Assembly: GCA_965248055.1 (NCBI GenBank)
Contig: CBDFIJ010000004.1
Span: 672,001-736,000, forward strand
Direction of reading: 5' to 3'
DNA: 64,000 nucleotides
DNA from: Candidatus Multivoradales bacterium
Lineage (GTDB): Bacteria; Acidobacteriota; Thermoanaerobaculia; Multivoradales; JAHEKO01
Within the stretch, counting starts at the first letter, position 1; the number at the start of each line of letters is the position of its first letter. The position numbers and the translations under genes are program-made. The notes below the pieces were generated by a model, which saw nothing but the letters and a program-made list of their open reading frames with translations, was not told the DNA's origin and ran no database searches. Of the stretch, positions 1,923-16,852 are shown one piece after another.

Positions 1923-4235
1923 ATGAGACAACAACCCCAAACATCCATTGACCGAACCGTACGCCCTGTCATTGCACGGCAGAAGCAATCGTCGACCCTA
2001 GCAACGCTGCCCTCCCTGGTGGCTATTGCAGTGCTCGCGGTTGGTTCTCTCGCCGGAGCCACAGCGGCTCAAGCCAGCGACGACAATTACGGTTTCTATC
2101 GCATCCTGGACGGCGAGGCGGTTCGCTACGGCGGCGCTGAAGATCAACGTGAGGTGACCGAGAACGAACCCTTGTTGGAAGGAGATCGGGTCTCTGTGGA
2201 GCGCGGCAGCCGTCTGGAGGTAGTCCTCCCGGATTTCTCTCGTGTTCGTCTAGATGAACTGACCCAGGTCGACTTTGAGCGTTTGCGAGTCAAAGATGAG
2301 CGAGCGGATACCTTTCGCCTACGATTGTTTGAGGGCGAGTTGCAGATTTCGGTCGACCAATCACCCGAAGAGTTTCTCTTAGAACTGGATACCGCCAGTG
2401 TCTACTTACTCGACGCCGGTAACTATCGGATCTCCGGTGGCCTTGACTACGCACGTATTTTGGTACGCGAGGGCTTTGCGGAGATTCTTACCGAGCGTGG
2501 ATCGACAATCGCTCGTACCGGCGAAGAAGTGATCATCGAAGGGAGCAGTGACCCGCAGGTGTGGGTGCAAGACGCGGGGGTCGCAGACTCCCTAGAACGT
2601 TGGGCGGACGACAACGAACGAGACTCACGTCGAGATGACCGCTACGTCGACGACCGGCTGAGCTATGCAGCTACGGACCTAGATCAAGATGGCGAATGGA
2701 TCGACGCTGGCGGTAGCTACGCTTGGCGGCCCTACCAGCGCAACGGCTGGGAGCGTCCCTACCATTCTGGCTACTGGTATGACACGCCCTACGGCGTCAA
2801 CTGGGTCTCTCAATATCGCTGGGGCTGGTTGACCAGCCACTATGGATACTGGGATTTCGATCGCCTGCACGGCTGGATGTGGTACCCCGGCGTGGCGTAC
2901 TCACCCGCCTGGGTACACTGGTACTGGGGTCCTAGCTATGTCGGATGGGTGCCCTCGGGCTACTACTATCGCCACTATGGGCGCTACGGATATGACTACT
3001 TTGGCTACGCCGGACGCGGCTGGCGCGGCTATGACAACTGGACCTTTTGCCAACGCGACCGCTTCGGCAATCGCCGACAACGGGTGTACTACGACGGTGT
3101 ACAAGTGGTTCAGCGACACGGTGGCGCGCTCAATGGTGGCATCGTCACCACCAGCACACGCGGCCTGCGACGCGAGGCCTGGGGCGACTTTGAGGACGGC
3201 AACCGGATCTTGCTGGGCAACGCCTCGCGGACCCGGGGTGGGCTGACCTATCGTCATCCTGAGGATCTGCCCGATGCGGTGGGTTACGTAACCTTGAATG
3301 CTGAAGCCCTACCCACCGCGGTGATGGATCGCAATCCGGCATTGGGTCGGCCCAACAGCAACGGCAGACCCAGCAGCAGTACGGTGACCAATCGCGGAGA
3401 TCAAGACGCTCGAGTGGCCGATGGTTTGGTAATACCAAGAGCAGGCGTGGTCGGTGATCGATCCGAGATACGACAAGGCAGACCAACCTCGGTGGCAGAT
3501 GGCGTCGGCACGACGCGCACCGGAGTCGATCAACGCACGCGCTCCCAATCAGCGCGCGAACGAGCGGCTGTTGAGCGAGATCGCCAGCGAGTGCTTCTTC
3601 CCGGTGCCCCGGTGGCGCAGCCTCGTGGCAAGTCTCTGCCCTCTGGGGATAGCCAGCCAACTGGTGACCGGCCCGTGCGTCGCGATCCAGCGCCAACGCG
3701 GACCGAAGGCAGTCGCCCTGCTGCCCCCAACGCTGGCCCCAGCGCTGGCACTAGAACTGGCGCTGGTACTAAGACTGGCACCGGTACCTGGAGCATCGAC
3801 CGCAGAGAGATTCCTCGAAGTGACACCACGCGGCCTGAGGCCCGCCCTGCGCCCAGCCGCGAGGCCAGCCGTGAAGCTAGACCTTCGGCAGATCGACCCA
3901 CTCGTTCAGAGCGTCCTTCGGCGACCTACGGCCGCGGCCAGAGCCGCCCCAGAAGCTCGACCAGCCCTTCGTCAACCCCGAGACCTCGATCAACCCCTCA
4001 GGCAAAGCCCAGGTCTACCCCTCAGCGGCGCTATGACCGACCGTCCTCAAAGGCGAAGTCTTCGAAAGCCAAAGCTAAGTCTTCAGGTCGTAGAAAACCG
4101 CGTTCCACTTCTAGCGGCGGCTCAGGCAGCTCTTCCAGTGGCGGGTCTTCCAGTGGCTCGGGGAGCAGCTCTGGGAGTTCCTCGCGGAGTGGATCGGGCT
4201 CAGCGTCGAGCAGTCGATCGGGCGGCGGCAGCTAG
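1923..4235 (+). CDS. Exported FecR/DUF6600-like protein with long low-complexity C-terminal tail
   Basis: GAGGAGG SD before ATG 1923; signal-like segment; FecR-like NEPLLEGDRV..GSRLEV; W/Y/G-rich GEW...WRPY...GYW...WGW..HYGYW...WYPG..YSPAWV; R/S/P/G-rich tail. Confidence 0.75.
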   Translation: MRQQPQTSIDRTVRPVIARQKQSSTLATLPSLVAIAVLAVGSLAGATAAQASDDNYGFYRILDGEAVRYGGAEDQREVTENEPLLEGDRVSVERGSRLEVVLPDFSRVRLDELTQVDFERLRVKDERADTFRLRLFEGELQISVDQSPEEFLLELDTASVYLLDAGNYRISGGLDYARILVREGFAEILTERGSTIARTGEEVIIEGSSDPQVWVQDAGVADSLERWADDNERDSRRDDRYVDDRLSYAATDLDQDGEWIDAGGSYAWRPYQRNGWERPYHSGYWYDTPYGVNWVSQYRWGWLTSHYGYWDFDRLHGWMWYPGVAYSPAWVHWYWGPSYVGWVPSGYYYRHYGRYGYDYFGYAGRGWRGYDNWTFCQRDRFGNRRQRVYYDGVQVVQRHGGALNGGIVTTSTRGLRREAWGDFEDGNRILLGNASRTRGGLTYRHPEDLPDAVGYVTLNAEALPTAVMDRNPALGRPNSNGRPSSSTVTNRGDQDARVADGLVIPRAGVVGDRSEIRQGRPTSVADGVGTTRTGVDQRTRSQSARERAAVERDRQRVLLPGAPVAQPRGKSLPSGDSQPTGDRPVRRDPAPTRTEGSRPAAPNAGPSAGTRTGAGTKTGTGTWSIDRREIPRSDTTRPEARPAPSREASREARPSADRPTRSERPSATYGRGQSRPRSSTSPSSTPRPRSTPQAKPRSTPQRRYDRPSSKAKSSKAKAKSSGRRKPRSTSSGGSGSSSSGGSSSGSGSSSGSSSRSGSGSASSSRSGGGS

Positions 4236-4360
4236 CCATCATTTTTCGAGATCACTGGCGACTTGCGGCTCTAACACCTCAGCCCGGAGTCTGCGCCTCA
4301 GAATCTTCTGAGCAGCGGAGGTCTCGGGGAGAAAGTCCAGCAGCCAGATTCAACACTGCG

Positions 4361-4366
4361 TAGAAT
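4361..4366 (+). promoter_or_regulatory. Putative -10 element (TAGAAT) of a leaderless transcript
   Basis: TAGAAT, then 6 nt, then GTG start at 4373; no SD. Confidence 0.4.
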
Positions 4367-4372
4367 CCGCGG

Positions 4373-4606
4373 GTGAGTGATTCTGCGTTTCGCTTTCTCT
4401 ACATTCTCTACTGCCTAGAAGGCGGGTTGGTGTTACTCCTAGCCCCGTGGCGACCTATCTGGGATCGAGTCCTGGTTCCTTCTGGTGTCTTGTGGATTTT
4501 TTGGACCTCCCATTGGACCCGTGCTTTAGCTTCGGGGATCGGCGCTCTGCTGTTGTTGAGCGCGATTTATGAAATCGTCGAATGGAGGCGCTCTCGTGCC
4601 GCATGA
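4373..4606 (+). CDS. Small membrane protein
   Basis: 77 aa with two hydrophobic segments; overlaps the start of the next gene. Confidence 0.65.
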   Translation: MSDSAFRFLYILYCLEGGLVLLLAPWRPIWDRVLVPSGVLWIFWTSHWTRALASGIGALLLLSAIYEIVEWRRSRAA

Positions 4607-5369
4607 TCTGCCTCGCGCCATGGCGATCTCTTCCCCATCGCTGGAATCTGGGGTCGATGGCGACAACTTTCTCGACCACTGGCAGGATTGGCTGCAAGCG
4701 TTGGAGAGCCAGGCTCTAGAGATCCAGTCTCGAACCATCGTTCAGATCCGCGCCAAGACTCTTTCGCCCAAAGTCTTGAACCAGGTGGTGGGTGTCGCCA
4801 AAGGCATCGTGCGCCGCAACCTACTGGTACTCAATGCCCGGGTCGACCTCGCTCTGGCTCTAGAAGTCGATGGAGTTCAGCTTCCAGAAGACGGACTTCC
4901 GGTTCGAGCGGTGCGCGCACTCGCCGGTCCTGATTTTTGGATTGGCCGCTCGGTGCATGATCTGGCGGGTGTTCGGGCCGCGGCTTCCCAGGGCGCCGAT
5001 TGGGTGACTTTGGCGCCGATCTTTGATCCCATCAGTAAACGTTCCTCCAGCGCTCCATTGGGGGTTGAGATCTTGGCCGAGGCTGCCGAGTATGGAATCC
5101 CCGTTTTTGCTCTGGGCGGGGTGACCGTTGACAATGCCAGCGTCTGCCGCGAGTCCGGTGCCTACGGAGTGGCAGGAATCTCTCTGTATAGCGCGGTCAC
5201 CAGAGCCCTGGACATCGAACCGCCGAAGTCTGACATCATCGACGCGGTGTCTAACGCGCAAGACAGTGCCAATCAACAAGACAGTGCCAATCAACAAGAC
5301 AGTGCCAATCAACAAGACAGTGCCGATGAACAAGCCAGGGCTCATGAACAAGACAGATCGATCGCTTGA
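4596..5369 (+). CDS. thiE: Thiamine-phosphate synthase (ThiE/TenI family)
   Basis: VQIRAK, LVLNARVDLALA..DGVQL, IGRSVH, GADWVTLAPIF, PVFALGGVT, GVAGI. Start codon uncertain. Confidence 0.8.
   Translation: MPHDLPRAMAISSPSLESGVDGDNFLDHWQDWLQALESQALEIQSRTIVQIRAKTLSPKVLNQVVGVAKGIVRRNLLVLNARVDLALALEVDGVQLPEDGLPVRAVRALAGPDFWIGRSVHDLAGVRAAASQGADWVTLAPIFDPISKRSSSAPLGVEILAEAAEYGIPVFALGGVTVDNASVCRESGAYGVAGISLYSAVTRALDIEPPKSDIIDAVSNAQDSANQQDSANQQDSANQQDSADEQARAHEQDRSIA
5259..5348 (+). repeat. 18-bp in-frame tandem repeat (CAAGACAGTGCCAATCAA x3 plus 2 degenerate copies)
   Basis: Directly visible; encodes QDSANQ repeats. Confidence 0.95.
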
Positions 5370-5440
5370 AGACGTCATCGCCGGATCGACTGGGCAAACA
5401 ACAGCAAGTGAACACAGCATCACAGGATAGATAGGGCGGA

Positions 5441-5842
5441 ATGATTTTGGGAGTTGGTACCGACATCGTCGCGATCGAACGCATTGAAAAGCTGGTCGAG
5501 GAGTATGGCGAGCGCTTCACCGCTAAGGTCTATACCGAACGTGAGCTGGTCAACGCGGAAGGCAAGGGGCCTCGCAGGGTGCAGCATCTCGCGGGCTTGT
5601 TTGCCGCCAAGGAAGCGGTTCTCAAAGCGCTGGGCACGGGTCAGTCACAGGGCGCGCGGCTGCAGGATGTTGAGTTGACCCCTCAGGACTCCGGAGCGCC
5701 CGAAGTCACCCTGCACGGAGCGGTTCGCGATCGATTCGAAAGTGACAAAGGGTCGGCGGTGCATGTATCGATCAGCCATGACGGCGGAATGGCGGTGGCA
5801 TTGGCAATTATTGAGACGGACGAGCCAAAGGGAGACGGATGA
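5441..5842 (+). CDS. acpS: Holo-[acyl-carrier-protein] synthase
   Basis: GVGTDIV, FAAKEAVLKALGTG and VSISHD motifs. Confidence 0.96.
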   Translation: MILGVGTDIVAIERIEKLVEEYGERFTAKVYTERELVNAEGKGPRRVQHLAGLFAAKEAVLKALGTGQSQGARLQDVELTPQDSGAPEVTLHGAVRDRFESDKGSAVHVSISHDGGMAVALAIIETDEPKGDG

Positions 5843-6339
5843 GCGCTTGGCGAGGAATCCGCGGAACCGCCTTGTTGCTAGCGCTCGGCATCCTAGCGAT
5901 CGATCAATGGTCGAAAGCCTGGATCGAGAAAGTGATCCCGATCGGTGGTCGGCGCGAGATCATTGCTGGATTCTTCAACCTCACCCACACCCGCAATGAC
6001 GGAGTCGCCTTCGGACTGTTTGCTGGCAGTGACGGCAGGTGGAAAGTGTGGCTGCTGGCTGGGTTGGCCCTGCTGGCAATTGGCGTCGTCCTGTCCCTGC
6101 TGCGCAGCACTCCAACAGAAAACCGGGTGTCGATCATTGCCTTGGGGTTGGTACTGGGCGGCGCGCTCGGCAATTTGATGGACCGGGTCGCCAGCGGCGC
6201 AGTCACCGATTTCTTGGACTTCTACCGGGGCGGGTATCACTGGCACACGTTCAATGTCGCAGACTCAGCAATCAGTGTTGGCGTCACCTTACTGCTACTG
6301 GATTCCTTGCTGCTCTCACGACGCAAGAAACTAACTTAG
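5839..6339 (+). CDS. lspA: Lipoprotein signal peptidase II
   Basis: DQWSK, NDGVAFG, GGALGNLMDR, VTDF and FNVADSAI motifs. Confidence 0.97.
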   Translation: MSAWRGIRGTALLLALGILAIDQWSKAWIEKVIPIGGRREIIAGFFNLTHTRNDGVAFGLFAGSDGRWKVWLLAGLALLAIGVVLSLLRSTPTENRVSIIALGLVLGGALGNLMDRVASGAVTDFLDFYRGGYHWHTFNVADSAISVGVTLLLLDSLLLSRRKKLT

Positions 6340-6350
6340 GATCAAACGCG

Positions 6351-7340
6351 ATGGAGAGTACGCATCGTTGGCTGGTGCCCGAAGCGGTACACGGCCAGCG
6401 GCTTGACGTTCACGTTGCCGAGCACCTGGCGGAGCCGCGCAACCAAGTGCAACAGTGGATTCGTTCCGGCGCACTGCAAATTGACGGCGACTCGGGAAAA
6501 CCTTCGACCACTTTGCTTGGCGGCGAGGAAATTGCCGTCACCCCTCCCCAACGCACCGACACCCGGGTCACCGCGGAGTCCGGCGAACTGGACATCGTCT
6601 ACCAAGATAATGTCTTGATTGTGATCAATAAACCTTCCGGCTTAGCAGTACATCCGGGCGCAGGACGAACCACTGGCACCTTGGTTCATCGGCTTCTGCA
6701 CCACTTCCCCGAGATAGAAGGCGTCGGTGGCGAGGGTCGTCCCGGAATCGTCCACCGACTCGATCTGGGCACCACCGGAGTGATGCTGGTGGCCCGCACC
6801 CAGTCTGCCTACCAAGTCCTCAGCAGCGCGTTTCAAGAGCGAAAGGTGCGCAAGATCTACCTCGGAGTCTGCGAAGGCCGCCCGAAGTCCGAAGCTGGGA
6901 CCATGGAGTGGTCGATTGGCCGCCACCCACACAAGAGAAAGCAAATGTGGGCTACTGATCGCGGCAAATCCGCGCGCACCGACTACAAGGTACTGGGAAT
7001 CGCCAGGAGGTCGGCATTACTGGAGTTGGACATCCACACCGGGCGCACGCACCAGATCCGAGTTCATCTCAAGACTCTGGGCCATCCGCTGCTGGGCGAC
7101 GCGCTCTACGGTCGTGAGCTACCGCGCAACTGGGGCCAAGACTTACAAGCGGCGATCCGGGTATTTGACCGACCCGCGTTGCACGCCTGGAAGCTACAAC
7201 TCGCCCACCCGGTCTCGGGCGAAGAGATACTGTTCATGGCGCCAATCCCAGAGGACTTTCAGAGGCTATGGCAAGGACTCGGTGGGCCAACGCTCAGTGC
7301 AGTGCCTGATCTGTCGGTCAGCGCCCCGCATACTTCCTAG
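6351..7340 (+). CDS. rluD: RluA-family pseudouridine synthase (RluD-like)
   Basis: S4 domain RLD, INKPSGLAVHPG, GIVHRLD, TGRTHQIRVH; lspA-rluD synteny. Start moved to ATG 6351. Confidence 0.9.
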   Translation: MESTHRWLVPEAVHGQRLDVHVAEHLAEPRNQVQQWIRSGALQIDGDSGKPSTTLLGGEEIAVTPPQRTDTRVTAESGELDIVYQDNVLIVINKPSGLAVHPGAGRTTGTLVHRLLHHFPEIEGVGGEGRPGIVHRLDLGTTGVMLVARTQSAYQVLSSAFQERKVRKIYLGVCEGRPKSEAGTMEWSIGRHPHKRKQMWATDRGKSARTDYKVLGIARRSALLELDIHTGRTHQIRVHLKTLGHPLLGDALYGRELPRNWGQDLQAAIRVFDRPALHAWKLQLAHPVSGEEILFMAPIPEDFQRLWQGLGGPTLSAVPDLSVSAPHTS

Positions 7341-7415: not shown

Positions 7416-7885
7416 CTACTCGACGGGTTCTAGATCCTCTTCCAGTTGGATCGTCTCCAGGTAGAGCACCAGCTCCTGGATTTTGCGCGCGGCCCGTTTC
7501 TCGCCATCGACCGGCTCCGCCCCTGGAACAGGACGCAACTCAGTCTGCAGCACTTCGCCCACACCGGCATCTCTCTTGCCCCATGCGCCTGGACAAATCT
7601 GCGACCATCGATGAACTCAGCAACCCGCTTGGCAGGAAACTCTCCTTCATTTTCTGGGCTTAGAAAACGCAAATCCGACGGTTCGACCTTGAGCATCGTC
7701 GCCAACATTCCGTTGCCGTCCGCGGCTTTGCCGTGGCAACTCGCGCAATAACGTTTGAACGTCACCCTACCACTGGCTGCGTACAGAGTCGGTTCCTCCT
7801 TTTGCTCCTGGCTTATCGCCGGAGTGAGCCCCAAAACCACAGCAAAGGCAAGCGTTAAAGCGACCCCAACAAACGATTTATTCAT
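7416..7885 (-). pseudogene. Monoheme cytochrome c with a one-base frameshift (pseudogene or sequencing error)
   Basis: GGAGG SD, signal peptide, CASCH, HGAREMPVW. Adding one G at 7558-7560 restores WGEVLQ...KIQELVLYLETIQ...TAG(7416). Confidence 0.8.
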
Positions 7886-9227: not shown

Positions 9228-9303
9228 TGGAGCGGGCAACGGGACTCGAACCCGCGACATCAAGCTTGGGAAGCTTGCACTCTACCAGCTGAGTTATGCC
9301 CGC
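9228..9303 (-). tRNA. tRNA-Gly (CCC)
   Basis: GCGGGCA-TAACTCAGCTGGTAGAGTG-CAAGC-TTCCCAA-GCTTG...GGTTCGAGTCCCG-TTGCCCGC-TCCA; 76 nt with encoded CCA. Confidence 0.97.
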
Positions 9304-9557: not shown

Positions 9558-11306
9558 TTAGCTATGCGGTTCATCAAATAGCGGCGCAACCGAAGCCCCA
9601 GGGAGAGTTAACTGGCCAAATCTCTCTTTCGCGATCTTGGGTGCTATCTTGAATGTTGTGTCATAAGACTGCGAAGGCCTATCTAAACTTGCCCCATGCA
9701 GCATTTCTTCAACTGTGACGAGCTGTATTCGCGAATGCGAACTGCCTAGAGGCGATTCGTAAAACCCTGCAGATGCCGCCTCCGTCCGCATAGGTTTAGT
9801 TGGATTTCGGAGCGATAGCAACACCCCTATGGCAGCGCCTTCACGCTCGATCACACCGCGTAAGTCTCTGACGTGCGCCACGCTCGTCTTACCACCCTTA
9901 ACTGAGAAGATGATCTGTTTCGTATCTCCGCTGGTGTCGTCGTGGAAATAGAGTCGCCCGTCGATTCCCTTGTCAGCGCCCTTCGCGCCAGAATCTGCCT
10001 TTCGAGCGTCAGCTAGACCAAGCGCCCAAGCCTGAAATTGGAACGGATCGTCCTTGGCCAGCTGTCTGGCACCGTCAACTGCGGTTGGCTCACCCACCAC
10101 TGGCCTGTGCCAGTCAACCTCCTCGCCAAAATGGCCTCGCAAACGACTCTTGATTTGGTTGATTGCCAGGTGGGTTACATCGATCCCGATCCAAGTACGG
10201 CCCAACGCCTGGGAAGATGCCAATGCTGTTCCACATCCACAAAACGGGTCAAGAACCACATCGCCTTTGTTGCTACTTGCTGCGATTATGCGTTCCAGCA
10301 ACTTCAGCGGTTTCTGCGTCGGGTAGCCCAGCCGTTCAGCTTTTCCCGGAGGCCCAATGTCAGTCCAAACGTCCTGAAGCGGAACACCTGACATCTCGTC
10401 CAGATATCGTTTGTAGCGAGGCATGCCGCTCTTTGCGTGATACAGGCGGCGATCATGGACAAACGACTCCATATTGGATTTTGAATACGCCCAGTATCGC
10501 CCTTTGTACGGTGGTACACCATTGTATTCCCACCCAGGCTTCGGGTTCTTCCAGTCCCCATCCAGATCAGGGGCCCATCCCCCCCCCTCACGCTTCTTCA
10601 CGCGCCACAAATACTCTGTGTCGCCTCCAGGCTTTGCGGCAGTCAAATTATCGAGTTGATATCTCCTACCGGTGCCAAGTTCCTTGTGTGCGTACGAAGA
10701 CTTGATGTACTCCTCATTATAGGGAGTAAAAACCGGGTTCCAGGTCCATACTTGAGATTTCGTGTAGAAGAGAATGATGTCGTGGATATGGCCATGTCGT
10801 TTCCGTCCCTGTTTTGTATCGCTGTGTGCAGACGTACGCTTCCACACAAGTTCAGATTTGAATCTTTTTGCCCCAAAAACAGCATCGAGCAAGATCTTCA
10901 AGTAGTGGCTCGCCGTTGGATCGCAATGCAGATACATGGAACCTATTGGTTTGAGAACCCGGTGAAGCTCAACCAGCCTGGGGGCCATCATTGCTAGATA
11001 GGCAAGCATGTCAGACTCCCCTACGAGGCCGCGAAATGCTTGCAGCGCTCGGGAAACAGGACCACCGCTCTCTACAGTCTCGTGGTACGCACGTGCGGCG
11101 CCTTCGTCCCAGCGCCAAGTATCGTCAAACGCTTCAATTTGGGCTTCAGAACGTGTTCCATCCTGCTGCTTAAACAGTACGTTGTAGCTCTTGTTGGAGT
11201 TAAAAGGCGGGTCAAGGTACACCAGATCGACCGACTCGTCTTGGACATAACGACGCAGGATGTCTAGATTGTCACCGTAGAACAATTGGTTTCCGTTTTC
11301 AGCCAT
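9558..11306 (-). CDS. N6A/N4C DNA methyltransferase (beta-class motif order) with C-terminal Mrr-like restriction-endonuclease-type domain
   Basis: LDPPFNS precedes YPTQKP...VLDPFCGCGT; C-terminal PFQFQAWA...ADKGIDG...IIFSVKGG...AAIGV. Start at ATG 11306 or GTG 11333. Confidence 0.88.
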   Translation of the reverse strand: MAENGNQLFYGDNLDILRRYVQDESVDLVYLDPPFNSNKSYNVLFKQQDGTRSEAQIEAFDDTWRWDEGAARAYHETVESGGPVSRALQAFRGLVGESDMLAYLAMMAPRLVELHRVLKPIGSMYLHCDPTASHYLKILLDAVFGAKRFKSELVWKRTSAHSDTKQGRKRHGHIHDIILFYTKSQVWTWNPVFTPYNEEYIKSSYAHKELGTGRRYQLDNLTAAKPGGDTEYLWRVKKREGGGWAPDLDGDWKNPKPGWEYNGVPPYKGRYWAYSKSNMESFVHDRRLYHAKSGMPRYKRYLDEMSGVPLQDVWTDIGPPGKAERLGYPTQKPLKLLERIIAASSNKGDVVLDPFCGCGTALASSQALGRTWIGIDVTHLAINQIKSRLRGHFGEEVDWHRPVVGEPTAVDGARQLAKDDPFQFQAWALGLADARKADSGAKGADKGIDGRLYFHDDTSGDTKQIIFSVKGGKTSVAHVRDLRGVIEREGAAIGVLLSLRNPTKPMRTEAASAGFYESPLGSSHSRIQLVTVEEMLHGASLDRPSQSYDTTFKIAPKIAKERFGQLTLPGASVAPLFDEPHS

Positions 11307-11594
11307 GCCACGAAGGCTATCAGTTCGCTTCACGTGCCAATATATCCAACTGGCTTATGCGATTTCAATGTTGGAATCTTGAATCGACACCCTCAGAAAC
11401 ATGAGAGTGAACCATGCACCGGTCCAAAGACGGACCCAAGAGAGTGCGAATAGAAGCTCGTCCTGAGGTTAGATCCGAATCTAAAGAACGCATGACCGAT
11501 GGAAAGAAAACCCTTGACTGGACCGCCCGACTCATAGAAGCCGAATATTCGTAAGTGCTTGACCGCTACGCCACGATGGTGGGATGTTCCTTTG

Positions 11595-11897
11595 ATGCGT
11601 TTACGGCAACTTCGGCTGCGGAAGAGCTCAACAGGATTACTAGCGGTGATCATTTACGTGGCGATCACAGCTCTTCCTCTGCTGACGGGATCATCGCTGC
11701 ACGGGTTGGCTTCCATCGTCTTTCTTCTGACGCCTTGGATCTGGTTGATCCCGAGCGGTGGGTACCTTGCTTTGGGGACACATAGCTTCTGGATTATCTG
11801 CATCGGCGCCGCCTCGTTAAACGCGACCATCGTTTACTTGATGTTCGGTGGGCTGAGGGAGCGCGAAACTGGAGTTGGCCCCTTCTACCTTAGATAG
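11595..11897 (+). CDS. Small multi-pass membrane protein (cassette-like)
   Basis: 100 aa with about 3 hydrophobic segments; start uncertain. Confidence 0.5.
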   Translation: MRLRQLRLRKSSTGLLAVIIYVAITALPLLTGSSLHGLASIVFLLTPWIWLIPSGGYLALGTHSFWIICIGAASLNATIVYLMFGGLRERETGVGPFYLR

Positions 11898-11967
11898 GTA
11901 GATTAAGAACAGGCGGCGACCCTGGGTCTGGCCGGATCCCCGAGATGGGAAACCTTGGACCAAGCTA

Positions 11968-12469
11968 GCTCAGCGATCTCCCATCAACACATCACCCAGG
12001 CCACCAAGAATCGACCCCTCTCCTTTGTGTTTGCCTCCACCCTGTGGGGCTGCAGCGAAGATGCGGCTTGCCAGGCGGCTGAACGGTAGCGACTGGACCC
12101 AGATCTTGCCGGGGCCGGTGAGGGCGGCAAAGAACAGCCCTTCTCCGCCGAATAACGCGGTCTTGATTCCCGGCACCATTTGGATGTCGTAGGCGACGGT
12201 GGACTCCAGTGCCACCAAGCACCCGGTATCTAGCCGCAAGGTCTCTCCGACGGCCAAGTCGCGTTCCAAGATGGTGCCACCGGCGTGGACGAAGGCCATT
12301 CCGTCCCCTTCCAGCTTCTGCAGGATGAAGCCTTCACCGCCAAAGAAACCGGCGCCCAGTCTGCGGTTGAAAGCGATGCCCACCGAAACACCCTTGGCGG
12401 CACACAGGAATGCGTCCTTCTGGCAGATCAATTGGCCGTTGTGCGAGGGCAGATCGATGGGAATGATGC
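11968..12469 (-). repeat. 502-bp diverged direct copy of the 3' half of the AIM24 gene (partner 14751..15252)
   Basis: Gapless alignment at offset 2783; about 46 mismatches by hand count; only 2 amino-acid changes. Confidence 0.97.
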
Positions 12470-12710
12470 TACAGGTGCCAGCCGAATATCCGGTTCGCTG
12501 GCAGTACAGCTTCGTCAATGTAGTCGAGACCCACAGCCGATGCTGAGGGTCGATTGAGATCTCCTGGATTCTCCCCTCGACCACAATCTCTGGGCGAAGA
12601 TCCGCCTGACTTTCCTGAGCCTCGACTTTCAAGCAACCGAACAGTGGAATTAGCAATGAAAGGGCCCATCTTCCTGCCAGGTTGCCTGATCGTCTTCCTA
12701 GGTTTCCCAT
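11970..12710 (-). CDS. Chimeric ORF: exported-protein N-terminus fused to the AIM24 C-terminal half
   Basis: GGAGGGGAG SD; signal-like [10 protein letters not shown]...AQ; the junction GYSAGTCS is encoded by the repeated motif, then IIPIDLP... nearly identical to 14753..15769. Confidence 0.6.
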
Positions 12711-12895
12711 ACTCCCCTCCTGTGACCTGATCTGGGCGGATTAGTTCCGAATCTTCCTAATAGCCGCTCTTGCATGATCATCAATCTGTCATGAGTACCA
12801 GCTGAATATCCGGATCGGTTTGCGCTGGAGATTCCGGCCCAAGCGGTGGCAGAAACTAAGGAAATATTCCTAGAAAAACTAATTAGGCACTTCCT

Positions 12896-13084
12896 CTACT
12901 CAAACAGGCTCACAGCGGCGAACCAAGCAGCAGCAGCTCCAATCGCGACGATCATTCCATACGACAAAAAGGAAACCAATGCAGCGAGCGTCACCACAAC
13001 GGCGGCCATGATCACAATCCCTCGCCTGCCATATCGATGGCCAACAAGGGCCACGGCAAGAACTCCAACTGTTACAGGTGCCAG
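12896..13084 (-). pseudogene. 5'-truncated fragment of a membrane-protein gene
   Basis: Reads ...VTVGVLAVALVGHRYGRRGIVIMAAVVVTLAALVSFLSYGMIVAIGAAAAWFAAVSLFE-stop; begins at the motif with no start codon at its 5' end. Confidence 0.55.
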
Positions 13085-13294
13085 ATCAACCGTGTTACAG
13101 GTGCCAGCCGAATATCCGTGGATCTATCCTAGTGCGGAAGACGAGGAATCTTTCCACGGCCATGGCTGATACCGTTGGACTTATGAGGAAGCTCCATAGT
13201 CCTAATAGGTGCTAGCCGAATGTTCGGCTGGGACTAGTAATTCGGACTGCCAATTTGTGGGATGGGGTGTGTTGAGATTTTTGGAGGCCGGACA

Positions 13295-13690
13295 ATGCGC
13301 GATGAACAAGAGATACGAGATCTATTCAACAATTGGATAACATCAACAACCGAAGGAAATTTGGAATTAGCTCGTCAATGCATTGCCGATGACGCCGTGT
13401 TTCTTGTTCCCGGTGTTGGCGAGATGAATAAGGAAACGTTTGCTCAGGCTGCTGCGGGAGAATCACCTGAAGAATCCTCGATTGATTTTGCTCTCGATAG
13501 CAAGCTTCGTGAACTAAAGGTGTTTGGTGATCAAGCCTATCTTTGGATTGAATCGACCCTTGTATGTACTCCTAAGAATGGGGATCCGGCCACACGAATG
13601 GCGGGGCACTCCCTTTCGATATTAGAAAAGCGTGATGGCCGCTGGCAAATAATTCGAGACGCAAATACGATGACGGCGGTCCCGGAATAG
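13295..13690 (+). CDS. SnoaL/NTF2-like (SgcJ/EcaC, DUF4440-type) protein
   Basis: GGAGG SD; DEQEIRDL...W...ADDAVFLVPG...G..LSILEKRDGRWQIIRDAN pattern. Confidence 0.85.
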   Translation: MRDEQEIRDLFNNWITSTTEGNLELARQCIADDAVFLVPGVGEMNKETFAQAAAGESPEESSIDFALDSKLRELKVFGDQAYLWIESTLVCTPKNGDPATRMAGHSLSILEKRDGRWQIIRDANTMTAVPE

Positions 13691-13806
13691 GTATTTCTGA
13701 ATGTGCAACGTAACAAATCGCTCTGTTTATAGTTGCTGCCGCTGCTCAGGTACCAGGCGAATACTCGGCCTGCACACAAAACTCCGCTCGCTTTCTCCAC
13801 CCGCGA

Positions 13807-14637
13807 GTGACACCCGGTAGGAAGAAAACCTCAGTGCGAGTAATCCCTTATCCCATAGAGCGAGACCCGACCAAGAACTGGGCTCTTGGACCGGTGGCGA
13901 GCTGCGTTTCATTCATGGCTACCGAGATCGCGATGGCTGGTGTGATTATTCGGAGCCTGGAGCTGATGCCGTTGATGCCTCCCTTGATGACCCTTGCTGC
14001 TCAGGTGGTTGCGCTAAAGAAAGGACCTGAAGATCTAGAGCCGTTTGAGCGTTTTCTTTCCGAAGATATGGGGTTTTCGGGTATGTCGGAAGAGCTGGTT
14101 CGTGACGATTTCGCTCTGCCAAACTCTCACACCTTAGTAGCGCTGTGGAGTGCCATTGAGACCTGCCTTGAGGACACGATCGTCCTTACTTTGATGAACG
14201 ATGAGCGCGCTGCGACTTCCATCAGCGCAGAGGTTTCTATACCCAGCTATGACGAGGGACTACTTGACGAGCGTCAGGCGAGAGCTACGTTTCGTCGCCT
14301 TGAGAGCAAGGCCCGGCAAAGTCATGGGGTCATGGAGTCCGCCGACTGGATGCTAGGACTTATTGAAATGGCCCGAGAGCCAAGTTCAGACGCCTCGGAG
14401 GTGATGAGTGAGGTGAACGCACTACGAAACTCAATCATGCACAACGGTGGAGTATTGGACCAACGATCACTGAAGGCGGCACCAAGTCTGCGTTTCGTCG
14501 TTGGTGAGGAGATCAAAATCAAACGAGACGAGTTACGCTCCTACAACGACTCACTCAGTACTTTTGTTCAGGAACTGCTTTCTGGAGTGCTCGCGAGCCG
14601 CTATATGAGATCGAAGGAAGAACTTCAGCAATCTTGA
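13807..14637 (+). CDS. Hypothetical protein with HEPN-like RxxxxH motif
   Basis: Helical; LVALWSAIETCLED near the middle and LRNSIMHNGG near the C-terminus; start uncertain. Confidence 0.6.
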   Translation: MTPGRKKTSVRVIPYPIERDPTKNWALGPVASCVSFMATEIAMAGVIIRSLELMPLMPPLMTLAAQVVALKKGPEDLEPFERFLSEDMGFSGMSEELVRDDFALPNSHTLVALWSAIETCLEDTIVLTLMNDERAATSISAEVSIPSYDEGLLDERQARATFRRLESKARQSHGVMESADWMLGLIEMAREPSSDASEVMSEVNALRNSIMHNGGVLDQRSLKAAPSLRFVVGEEIKIKRDELRSYNDSLSTFVQELLSGVLASRYMRSKEELQQS

Positions 14638-14752
14638 AGCTCAGAGAACGCCCTTTTGTAGGTGCCAGTCGAGTATGCGGCCCTAGGTGCTGCCGCTGCT
14701 CAGGCCAGGCGAATATTCGCACAATAGTTCGAACGACACCTCCAAAGACTGC

Positions 14753-15769
14753 TCAGCGATCCCCCATCAAGACATCCCCCAGGCCACCAAGAATCGACCC
14801 TTCTCCTTTGTGTTTACCTCCACCCTGTGGGGCTGCGGCGAAGATGCGGCTTGCCAGGCGGCTGAACGGTAGCGACTGGACCCAGACCTTGCCGGGTCCG
14901 GTAAGCGCGGCAAAGAACAGTCCTTCTCCGCCAAACAGCGCGGTCTTGATCCCGGGCACCATTTGGATGTCGTAGGCGACGGTGGACTCTAATGCCACCA
15001 AGCAACCGGTATCTAGCCGCAGGGTTTCCCCAGCAGCCAGGTCGCGTTCCAAGATGGTGCCGCCAGCGTGGACGAAGGCCATTCCATCTCCTTCCAGTTT
15101 CTGCAGGATGAAGCCTTCTCCACCAAAGAAACCGGCGCCCAAGCGTCGATTGAAGGCGATGCCCACCGAAACTCCCTTGGCGGCGCACAGAAAGGCATCC
15201 TTCTGGCAGATCAGTTGGCCGTTGTGCGAGGGCAAATCGATGGGAATGATGCGCCCTGGATAGGGTGCGGCAAAAGCGACCTTCTGCTGCGTTTGATGGG
15301 TGTTGCCGAAAACCGTCATGAACAAGCTCTCCCCGGTGATCACGCGTTTCCCGGCGCTGAGGACCTTGTCCAGGAATCCGCCTTCTTGATCCTTGTGCGA
15401 ACCGTCGCCGAAGATGGTCTCCATCTCTATCCCAGGGTCCATGTACATGAACGACCCGGCCTCAGCAATGCAGGACTCCCGGTGATCGAGGGTCACTTCC
15501 ACGAACTGCATCTCCTCGCCAAAGATTTGGTAGTCGATCTCGTCTGCGGAGCGATTCACAGGCACCGGGGGTGGCGCCTGCTCGGAAAATGCTTGGGCAA
15601 AGTCCTCGTGGTCGCCAGCCACCACCCAGTTGTCCATCCCCTTGCGAAAGATGTAGGCGTTGCGGGGCAGGGCGCCACTATGAATCCTCTCCTCGACCTG
15701 GGCGATCTCCATCGGCCCTTCTTGTTTGCCATTGACTGCGGTAAACCAAACTGCTTGTGAATCACTCAT
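14753..15769 (-). CDS. GYF_2-domain plus AIM24 (TIGR00266-family) protein
   Basis: N-terminal WF..NGKQEGP...[10 protein letters not shown]; then [16 protein letters not shown]...AEAG...GESLF...[13 protein letters not shown]...QSLPFSRLA. Confidence 0.9.
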
Positions 15770-15802: not shown

Positions 15803-16852
15803 CTAATACGCGTTGTTGTGAGACTCGCCGTTTCCGGAACCGTTGCTTTCGGAGCCACCGCTTTGAGAGGCACTGCTTTCGGAACCACTGAAGCGCACTT
15901 CAAACATCTTCGGCCAGTACTTACCGGTGAGAAAAAACGTGCCTCTCTGCGGATGATATGCGATGCCATTGAGGACCTCGGCTCGCCCAGGATTGGGCTG
16001 CAGCCGAGGGCGCAAGGCCGAAGAGTCAATGTGTGCCACCACCTTGCCGACACTGGGATCGATCACCAGGATTTCATCCACGGTGTAGAGGTTGGCATAG
16101 ATCAGTCCGTCGACGCATTCCAACTCGTTGAGCAGACGCACCGGAAAGCCTGGGTCAGGCACCGACATCGACCCTTGGTAGCTGAACTCCTCGACGCTGA
16201 AGGTCTGCAAGATTCGGGTGCCGTTGCTCATCCAAAGGCGCTGCCCGTCGCTGCACAGTCCCCACCCTTCACCGCGGTAACTCATGGTTGCCGTATTCTC
16301 CAACTCTAGATTCCAGTGCAACGCCCGTCCCGCTAGATAGGTGAGCTGCCAAAAGCCTCCCGGAACGGCTGCCAGCCCCTCGCCAAATAAACTCGACGAA
16401 AGCTCGTTCTGCTCCAGTACTTCGCCGGTTTGAAAATTGGTGCGACGCAGGGTCGAGGCTCCGCGTAGGCCGGTGCTTTCCCACAGATCGTCGCCGACAA
16501 ACACCAGTCCCTGGGTATACGCCAAGGGGTCATGGGGATACTCGGCAAGGATTTCGAGGCTCCACTCTTCGACCGGCGTTGGATCTACTGCCGCCTGATC
16601 TATGAGACCTGCATTTACTGCCTCTGGATTATCCTCAGCGAGCTGCTCAACCGGCTCCACTGCAGTCGCAGCAGATCCCATTGATTGTTCAACAGACGGC
16701 GATTGTTGTGGGGTGCTTTGCGCTCGGCAAGCGCCGATAGTCAAGACCGCTAGAGCCAGGATTGCCAGCGCCAGTAGCGAGCAGATCAAGACCAATCTCG
16801 AATGGACACCAGCCCACGGTGCGCAGCGTGAGGTCTTTGACAACGGAGGCAT
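15803..16852 (-). CDS. Glutaminyl-peptide cyclotransferase
   Basis: YPHDPLAYTQGL, ESTGLRG, FGEGLA, GEGWGL, LNELE, VLNGIAY, TGKYWP. Confidence 0.93.
   Translation of the reverse strand: MPPLSKTSRCAPWAGVHSRLVLICSLLALAILALAVLTIGACRAQSTPQQSPSVEQSMGSAATAVEPVEQLAEDNPEAVNAGLIDQAAVDPTPVEEWSLEILAEYPHDPLAYTQGLVFVGDDLWESTGLRGASTLRRTNFQTGEVLEQNELSSSLFGEGLAAVPGGFWQLTYLAGRALHWNLELENTATMSYRGEGWGLCSDGQRLWMSNGTRILQTFSVEEFSYQGSMSVPDPGFPVRLLNELECVDGLIYANLYTVDEILVIDPSVGKVVAHIDSSALRPRLQPNPGRAEVLNGIAYHPQRGTFFLTGKYWPKMFEVRFSGSESSASQSGGSESNGSGNGESHNNAY

Follow-up and report, generated by a model that had tools for sequence, protein, structure and literature searches.

What assembles a row of short repeats, all pointing the same way, around single genes and gene fragments in one intergenic gap? 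The question is raised by a Candidatus Multivoradales bacterium (Acidobacteriota; assembly GCA_965248055.1), where such a row lies in a stretch of 64,000 nucleotides (nt) of contig CBDFIJ010000004.1 (positions 672,001 to 736,000), which we call the window and whose own numbering we use for its features. The repeats occupy window positions 11539-14719, in the gap between a tRNA-Gly gene and an AIM24 gene. An initial annotation of the bare sequence proposed here an undescribed cassette-capture system with a tyrosine recombinase or an HUH enzyme acting in trans. We find that the repeated motif accompanies genes for RayT-like HUH/Y1 transposases, both elsewhere on the chromosome and in related genomes. 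The array is probably (at roughly 80%) an orphan cluster of ends from elements of the known TIRtron/TIRYT kind, which are RAYT-like transposase genes with long terminal inverted repeats (TIRs), caught in a variable gap, and not a purpose-built cassette platform.

The motif and the Y1 transposase genes

What is conserved is an asymmetric motif, about 21 to 26 nt in length, and the window holds seven same-strand copies resembling AGGTGCCAGCCGAATAT, together with one half-site and one partial core. The full copies, all on the + strand and scored in bits where a position weight matrix (PWM) value is given, lie at 12473-12493 (copy 1; 31.5 bits, at the breakpoint of an AIM24 fragment), 12793-12813 (copy 2; 22.3 bits), 13099-13119 (copy 3; 29.4 bits and, including a 6-nt flank, 96% identical to copy 1 over 26 nt), 13207-13236 (copy 4; the sole near-palindromic copy, which also scores on the - strand at 13216), 13748-13768 (copy 5; 25.3 bits), 14660-14680 (copy 6; 23.3 bits), and 14698-14719 (copy 7; with a left arm that is 2 nt shorter). 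The half-site at 13070-13084 (+) is a partial tandem copy consisting of flank and left arm, and the partial core at 11539-11550 (+) retains the right part of the motif only.

The repetition of one motif in one orientation, as described in the initial annotation, is well supported. The 21-mer with at most 3 mismatches matches at 12473, 13099, 13207, and 14660, all on the + strand, and 0 of 100 dinucleotide-preserving shuffles gave any match. The 12-nt core with at most 2 mismatches adds 11537, 12798, 13753, and 14705; its total of 13 matches compares to a shuffle mean of 3.7 and was reached by none of 100 shuffles. An independent repeat search returned one family with members at 12467, 12787, 13093, 13201, 14654, and 14694, and a second family at 12467, 13070, and 13093, which takes in the half-site.

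The palindromic consensus of two 12-nt arms around a 6-nt centre, also part of the initial annotation, had to be abandoned. A matching right arm is present in the window for the 13207 copy only (1/7). We compared the arms of 149 distinct copies from the chromosome and the relatives' loci, chosen on their left 13 nt only. When the left arm of a copy is paired with its own right arm, the best stem averages 3.37 nt, against 3.33 +/- 0.06 nt with the right flanks permuted, and arm pairing in a fixed register does not rise above background. The hairpin or palindrome reading was dropped on these two results. Three other candidates were rejected as well. Some copies read ...RIFGWHL-stop on the - strand, but there is no 3-nt period and the frames differ between copies, which speaks against a coding function. 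A sigma-54 promoter (TGGCAC on the - strand) was discarded since its spacing to any GC element is wrong as judged by eye. A replication-linked strand bias is unsupported, with a single replichore carrying arrays on the + strand at 0.68 and 1.14 Mb and on the - strand at 1.29-1.40 Mb; the skew minimum lies at about 1.92 Mb and the maximum at about 0.1 Mb.

A scan with the window motif and 5 mismatches places related variants in clusters at a few positions of the genome, and at one locus (L001) a motif copy lies 27 nt upstream of a gene for a Y1 HUH transposase (PF01797, 1e-11). The PWM, which was built from genome coordinates, was run over the 3.35-Mb chromosome with a census threshold of at least 15 bits. 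Of the resulting 76 hits, 44 fall within 6 kb of a Y1 match, a territory that amounts to 4.2% of the chromosome (binomial p of about 1e-40, to be read with caution as the copies are not independent and some of the matrix seeds come from Y1 flanks). The window cluster accounts for seven of the remaining hits, every one of them within 12473-14680 and with no other hit in the 64 kb, and 25 lie elsewhere, including solo hits away from Y1 genes at 663526, 2334611, and 3286928. The HUH (RAYT-like) enzyme named as one candidate in the initial annotation thus gains in weight, since the motif flanks RayT-like Y1 genes as an inverted repeat here and in relatives. The tyrosine recombinase named as the other candidate finds no support, with the nearest one about 200 kb from the array.

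The chromosome has 13 Y1_Tnp (PF01797) matches and 17 matches to the approximately 295-aa protein, nine of which are full-length. These nine genes can be sorted into about six sequence types, in some of which near-identical twins occur. Seven of the nine are preceded, at a distance of 35-55 nt from the ATG, by a motif variant on the strand of the gene; at the 1380487 copy, this upstream motif is split by an IS110 element, and at the 1142356 copy (C4:1142356-1143240) it was read from the locus sequence, as the scripted start was an earlier ATG. An inverted motif copy about 200 nt past the stop codon is likewise readable at seven of the nine full-length genes. The likeness of two sister elements extends over 1481363-1482527 (about 1.17 kb) and stops, on both sides, within about 9 nt of the motif. 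Judged from this layout, the motif is the terminal inverted repeat of elements of about 1.2 kb, each with one gene for an approximately 295-aa RayT-like HUH/Y1 transposase. The several near-identical gene copies per genome indicate that these elements are still moving.

The HYH triad of the protein and the tyrosine of its MKYILSQ segment align with the HUH (HVH) and the catalytic tyrosine of the ISDra2 TnpA transposase (PDB 2xm3). The best NCBIfam model is REP_Tyr_transpos (NF047646), the REP-associated tyrosine transposase (RAYT, with REP for repetitive extragenic palindrome), with 58.1 bits and under its cutoff of 80, and the IS200 model NF033573 gives 29 bits against a cutoff of 55. Homologues carry the JGI label "REP element-mobilizing transposase RayT" and in some cases the NCBI label "transposase [Thermoanaerobaculia bacterium]", and the nearest named relatives are metagenome-assembled genomes of Thermoanaerobaculia/Acidobacteriota. 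The Pfam search of the protein returned Y1_Tnp only, with no Pfam match and no helix-turn-helix (HTH) for the C-terminal region of about 160 aa.

The association extends to the relatives. Of 31 related genomes, 28 encode the Y1 protein family (27/30 without the unpublished genome G002), with up to 25 matches per genome, and a motif hit is placed as expected, upstream or downstream, at 9 of 11 Y1 loci examined in relatives. At one locus, which belongs to a different family of the order, the two tandem copies upstream of the gene equal the first 19 nt of the window motif, with the strands assigned from the match strands. In a 16-mer search of the order that allows at most one mismatch, 40 of 151 genomes have a match; the hits number about 97, compared to about 9 for the reversed control. 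Copies without a transposase gene recur in several arrangements. In genome G131 (L139), 11 gene-less copies, all on the + strand, are spread over 18 kb between genes on both strands that encode a PIN protein, a methyltransferase, MacB/FtsX permeases, a kinase-TPR protein, an ECF sigma factor, and others. The same-genus genome G001 (L136) has an array of three + copies without a transposase gene, and genome G065 (L137, L138) has inverted motif doublets 90-121 nt apart.

Insertions into the motif and the variable interval

The partial core at 11539 marks where an IS110-family element entered a motif copy, and forms its right junction. It is preceded by a 132-nt IS110-family 3'-end fragment (11411-11542, +), which shares 98.5% identity with the ends of the full copies located at C4 1144161 and 2105538; the full copy's transposase matches NF033542 with 236 bits (cutoff 140). 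The end of the insertion sequence (IS), ...CATAGAA, runs into the partial core, and the same right junction is seen at two or three other insertion sites. The point of entry can be read from a 1394-bp copy that enters the motif between ...GTGCCA and GCC..., with an intact, empty sister site, likewise the upstream repeat of a Y1 gene, at 1397792. GTGCCA stands at the left junction of all four full or near-full copies (G000:C4:1379050-1380443, 1144139-1145599, 2104265-2105691, and 804837-806096), two of which lie within one 3257-bp duplication and are not independent. The IS110 family is RNA-guided, and an IS1111-type guide (bridge) RNA would be expected in the non-coding stretch after the transposase gene; about 275 nt of non-coding sequence follow that gene here.

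The copy at C4:804837-806096 stops at element position 1305, and the window fragment at 11411-11542 starts at 1308. The two pieces are 122 kb apart in the same orientation and have the appearance of two parts of a single element that a rearrangement has separated. After the truncated copy comes an apparent transposase gene end, as read by eye. A second repeat, about 77 nt long, has ...TAATAAGTGGCACC at its end and, on the other strand, begins right after AGGTGCCA; it is found at L001 14680-14892, at L002 5515-5597, 12220-12302, 17985-18026, and 19380-19421, and at L152 ~4160-4260. This repeat looks like the end of another element inserting at the same motif point.

The gap in which the array lies is low in GC and strain-variable. 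From tRNA-Gly to AIM24 it measures 5.45 kb here and 1.35 kb in one same-genus genome, on which the interval comparison rests, and the shorter gap holds a transposase-like open reading frame (ORF) of 345 aa; the best wider AIM24 relative, being 70% identical, is too distant for such a comparison. The island has a GC content of 47-55%, compared to 58-62% for the flanks. The left border is the tRNA-Gly(CCC) gene at 9228-9303 (-; ARAGORN, Rfam tRNA 68 bits), and the right border is the intact AIM24/GYF gene at 14753-15769 (-; Pfam AIM24 2e-73, GYF_2 1.5e-12). A classical tRNA island was considered and rejected, as the window island lies on the 5' side of the tRNA-Gly; G001 has an integrase island, marked by a tRNA 3' repeat, on the opposite side. 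Adjoining the tRNA, inside the low-GC island, a single protein of 591 aa (9558-11333, -) fuses an N6/N4 DNA methylase to an Mrr-like nuclease domain (Pfam N6_N4_Mtase 5e-40, Mrr_cat 4e-6; PADLOC MTase_II/III).

The confirmed gene breakpoint within the array is that of the AIM24 3' fragment (11970-12469, -), which covers residues ~173-338, shows 90.8% nt identity to 14751-15252 of the intact gene, and ends at 12469, 3 nt from the motif copy at 12473. Fragment and intact copy differ at 47 of 501 nt, with 40 synonymous and 3 non-synonymous codon changes. This ratio places the divergence of the fragment in a working gene of another lineage, from which it came by transfer or recombination. Of the three gene breakpoints that the initial annotation placed at motif sites, the end of the AIM24 fragment stands and the others are unconfirmed: among the 151 genomes of the order, no convincing relative was found for the 72-aa piece at 12494-12710 (matches in 2/151 including its own genome; best foreign E 0.004). 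A chimeric open frame of 246 aa (11970-12710, -) begins with a lipoprotein-type signal (…LFGC, by eye) and runs through motif copy 1 into the AIM24 C-terminal fragment.

The description of intervals holding a single gene is correct for two segments. A SnoaL-like/DUF4440 gene of the SgcJ/EcaC family (13262-13690, +; Pfam DUF4440 5e-12, TIGR02246 1e-12) lies between copies, as does an ORF of 276 aa (13807-14637, +), for which HEPN-like is a lead only; it shows an Rx4H pattern (RNSIMH) in the translation and the Atlas lead RiboL-PSP-HEPN (0.93, rank 27), and has no Pfam, NCBIfam, or PADLOC family. Both are rare among the 151 genomes, with matches to the SnoaL-like gene in 8 and to the HEPN-like gene in 2, own genome included, at best foreign identities of 41% and 31%. 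A blastn search of 11300-14800 against the genome found, beyond the AIM24 duplicate, the IS110 fragment, and the 38-nt internal repeat, only matches of 34 and 74 nt.

Two further features of the assembly lie outside the window. Another small scrap-heap is found 8-10 kb upstream of the window start (L003 7195-8547; G000:C4:662194-663546), where two - strand motif copies flank a 294-aa ORF that was read by eye as an IS256/mutator-type transposase fragment. The contigs C1-C3 (14.8, 16.7, and 28.4 kb) have a GC content of 39-43%, compared to 57% for the chromosome, and may be plasmids, phage, or contamination.

Origin of the array

If the array is an orphan cluster of transposon ends, Y1 enzymes would recognise the repeat at the ends of their elements and act in trans on the gene-less copies. 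The array may then have grown by repeated insertion beside existing copies, by local duplication of ends, and by recombination at or near the ends. Such events could join unrelated neighbouring DNA, for example, the AIM24 fragment and the accessory genes, and the repeats would also attract IS110-family elements, as the junction at 11539 suggests.

Several observations weigh against this origin. The Y1 match nearest to the window cluster in the chromosome search is 79 kb away, and no element of this genome has exactly the motif variant of the window, the closest being those of the 1142356 and 2106590 copies. The shuffled chromosome has a background of about 7-15 PWM hits at 14-16 bits. The HUH/Y1 enzymes of the IS200/IS605 and REP systems recognise hairpins, and none is supported for the present motif; the action of the Y1 enzyme on this repeat is predicted from sequence. 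Both intact cargo genes begin 34-68 nt downstream of a motif copy, much as the Y1 genes do. All seven window copies have the + orientation, whereas relics of whole elements should give both orientations, so that decay alone does not account for an array pointing one way. In addition, direct repeats longer than the motif bracket two segments, the first between 12467-12492 and 13093-13118 (96% over 26 nt) and the second between 13730-13767 and 14684-14719 (89% over 38 nt). Paired direct repeats extending beyond the motif are the expected trace of site-specific insertion at a site. The repeat reads AGGTGCCAS..., in which GGTGCCAS agrees with 6 of the 8 positions of GGGGWSAS, the consensus quoted as shared by some TIRs (PMC3733652). 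Finally, partial tandem copies composed of a 5-10 nt flank and AGGTGC(C) immediately precede full copies of the motif in three genomes (window 13070-13119; L001 5493-5548; L136 ~7060-7102; L139 ~7610-7652 and 16200-16249). They may hint at a cleavage or strand-transfer point at this place, and an orphan cluster of ends explains them poorly.

Some of these observations are what cassette capture would lead one to expect. Here, the motif copies would be sites at which a trans-acting enzyme, perhaps the Y1 transposase itself, serially inserts gene-bearing circles and so builds up one-gene modules. The SnoaL-like and the HEPN-like genes are bounded by same-strand copies, both are rare in the order, and the direct repeats around the two segments exceed the motif. 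The foreign AIM24 fragment, with its signature of purifying selection, is joined exactly at a copy, and a circle entering by a single crossover would leave such a joint. We nevertheless consider this explanation unlikely. The locus encodes no such enzyme, with the nearest Y1 gene and the nearest tyrosine recombinase at the distances given above. No module was found twice, and none was found flanked by the motif elsewhere, so the cargo genes do not appear as repeated mobile units. In G131, the copies are interspersed among ordinary genes of either strand, with gaps between convergent genes included, and in the present genome most copies lie among transposases and their debris. The comparison of the interval, for its part, is limited to one same-genus genome. 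Cassette capture as proposed in the initial annotation is therefore not established.

A variant of this idea, in our view about as doubtful, would use single TIRYT-type repeats as integration sites, with circles of neighbouring DNA, which the Y1 enzyme would excise at a repeat in a one-ended manner like that of rolling-circle HUH elements, re-entering at another repeat or by homology. If true, it would explain the direct repeats around one-gene modules and the movement of gene fragments between lineages, and it would amount to cassette building run by an HUH enzyme without an integrase.

A role as a regulatory site, that is, an operator or promoter element upstream of genes, is very improbable. 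Such a function would suit the positions of the copies, which precede the starts of the SnoaL-like and HEPN-like genes by 34-68 nt and those of the Y1 genes by 35-55 nt. Copies are, however, also located at 3' ends, between convergent genes, in tandem only 23-45 nt apart, and at a gene breakpoint, and inverted copies mark the far end of each element.

Even less can be said for an integron-type origin, in which the copies would be attC sites of an integrase-less cluster (CALIN) served by an integrase encoded elsewhere in the genome. An integron integrase does exist at C4:1492852-1493769 (TIGR02249, 344 bits with the cutoff at 265), and it has two cassette-like ORFs as neighbours (L152 ~2100-5900, - strand). 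The boundary beside this integrase reads GCCCAAC ... GTTATCC by eye, which is not the motif, and the PWM has no hit in 1487000-1493000. The window motif, with its structure judged by eye, has no paired R''/R' boxes or bulged stem and no right-arm complementarity, and no RYYYAAC/GTTRRRY pair was seen by eye in the two gaps of 116-117 nt; the motif tracks the Y1 genes and not intI. The cassette array upstream of the integrase is itself interrupted by an IS-like insertion.

Xer/dif-like modules, with the copies as 28-30-bp sites recombined by XerC/D, can be dismissed with equal confidence: a Xer/dif site consists of two 11-nt arms around a 6-nt spacer, which the near-palindrome at 13207 with its 6-nt centre recalls, but the palindrome is not a property of the family, the second arm is absent in six of the seven copies, and none of the seven tyrosine recombinase matches lies near a motif cluster, save the integron integrase at about 5 kb from one.

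With the orphan cluster of transposon ends as the preferred origin, similar arrays in Acidobacteriota-like genomes are better annotated as transposon-end debris in variable islands, and not as integron-like platforms unless further evidence is at hand. The present genome offers a compact test case: its nine full-length Y1 genes belong to about six types with a repeat variant for each, an orphan array is present, and an IS110-family element enters the repeat at a fixed point.

Comparison with known systems

The arrays of integrons and CALINs and the Xer-pdif modules share with the locus the arrangement of short same-strand sites between single genes. They differ in the architecture of their sites, as neither attC nor dif structure is present here, the sites follow Y1 genes and not recombinases, and no module is seen moving.

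Closer to the transposase are the IS200/IS605 elements, such as IS608 and ISDra2, which are likewise small one-gene elements and whose Y1 HUH core, in ISDra2 TnpA, aligns with that of the present protein. These elements have dissimilar ends, subterminal hairpins, and a TnpA of about 130-150 aa. The ends described here are inverted copies of one motif, and the protein, with 295 aa, is twice as long.

The REP/RAYT systems (REPtrons, REPINs, and bacterial interspersed mosaic elements, BIMEs) also combine a Y1 HUH transposase with inverted short repeats and with dispersed intergenic repeats that are targeted by IS110-family elements, and the inverted doublets of G065, about 100 nt apart, resemble REPINs. 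The repeat head is AGGTGCCA in our case, in place of a GTAG head, no hairpin is supported, and the copies number in the tens and not in the hundreds. There are, moreover, multiple recently duplicated transposase genes, and the score of the RAYT model is below its cutoff. Membership in the classical REP/RAYT systems and in IS200/IS605 thus each fails on a defining feature.

The IS110-family insertion has its own parallel. IS110/IS1111 elements are described to insert into REP sequences, for example, ISPpu9 in Pseudomonas putida (PMC8450116), and in both cases the element enters a fixed point of a short genomic repeat. Compared with the ISPpu9 case as presented there, the target here is a TIRYT-type repeat instead of a REP, and the parallel accounts for the partial core at 11539 and not for the array.

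The closest match is the TIRtron. According to the available text of Di Nocera et al. (2013; PMC3733652), TIRtrons are RAYT-like genes with long terminal inverted repeats in place of REP hairpins, and their products are called TIRYTs. Their repeats form moderately abundant families whose members stand alone, as dimers, or in groups, and Acidobacteria harbour the best-defined group of TIRYTs. Given this description, the system cannot be called undescribed, contrary to the initial annotation. The corresponding text of Quentin et al. (2018; 10.1101/279083) equates TIRYTs with subclass 2.1, which has a C-terminal HTH. As far as they are available to us, both papers present sequence analysis only, with binding and cleavage assays named as future work, and the handling of hairpin-less ends by a Y1 enzyme is not reported in that text.

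Measured against these descriptions, and apart from the partial agreement with the repeat consensus, the present elements differ in that Pfam detects no HTH and that several near-identical gene copies occur per genome, and the likeness is judged from the architecture. The shared features, as far as the cited text describes them, are a RAYT-like Y1 gene that is longer than classical RAYTs and has the HUH motif and the catalytic tyrosine, inverted repeats at fixed distances from this gene in place of hairpin REPs, and moderately abundant repeats that occur single, paired, and clustered, with the Acidobacteria being prominent among their hosts.

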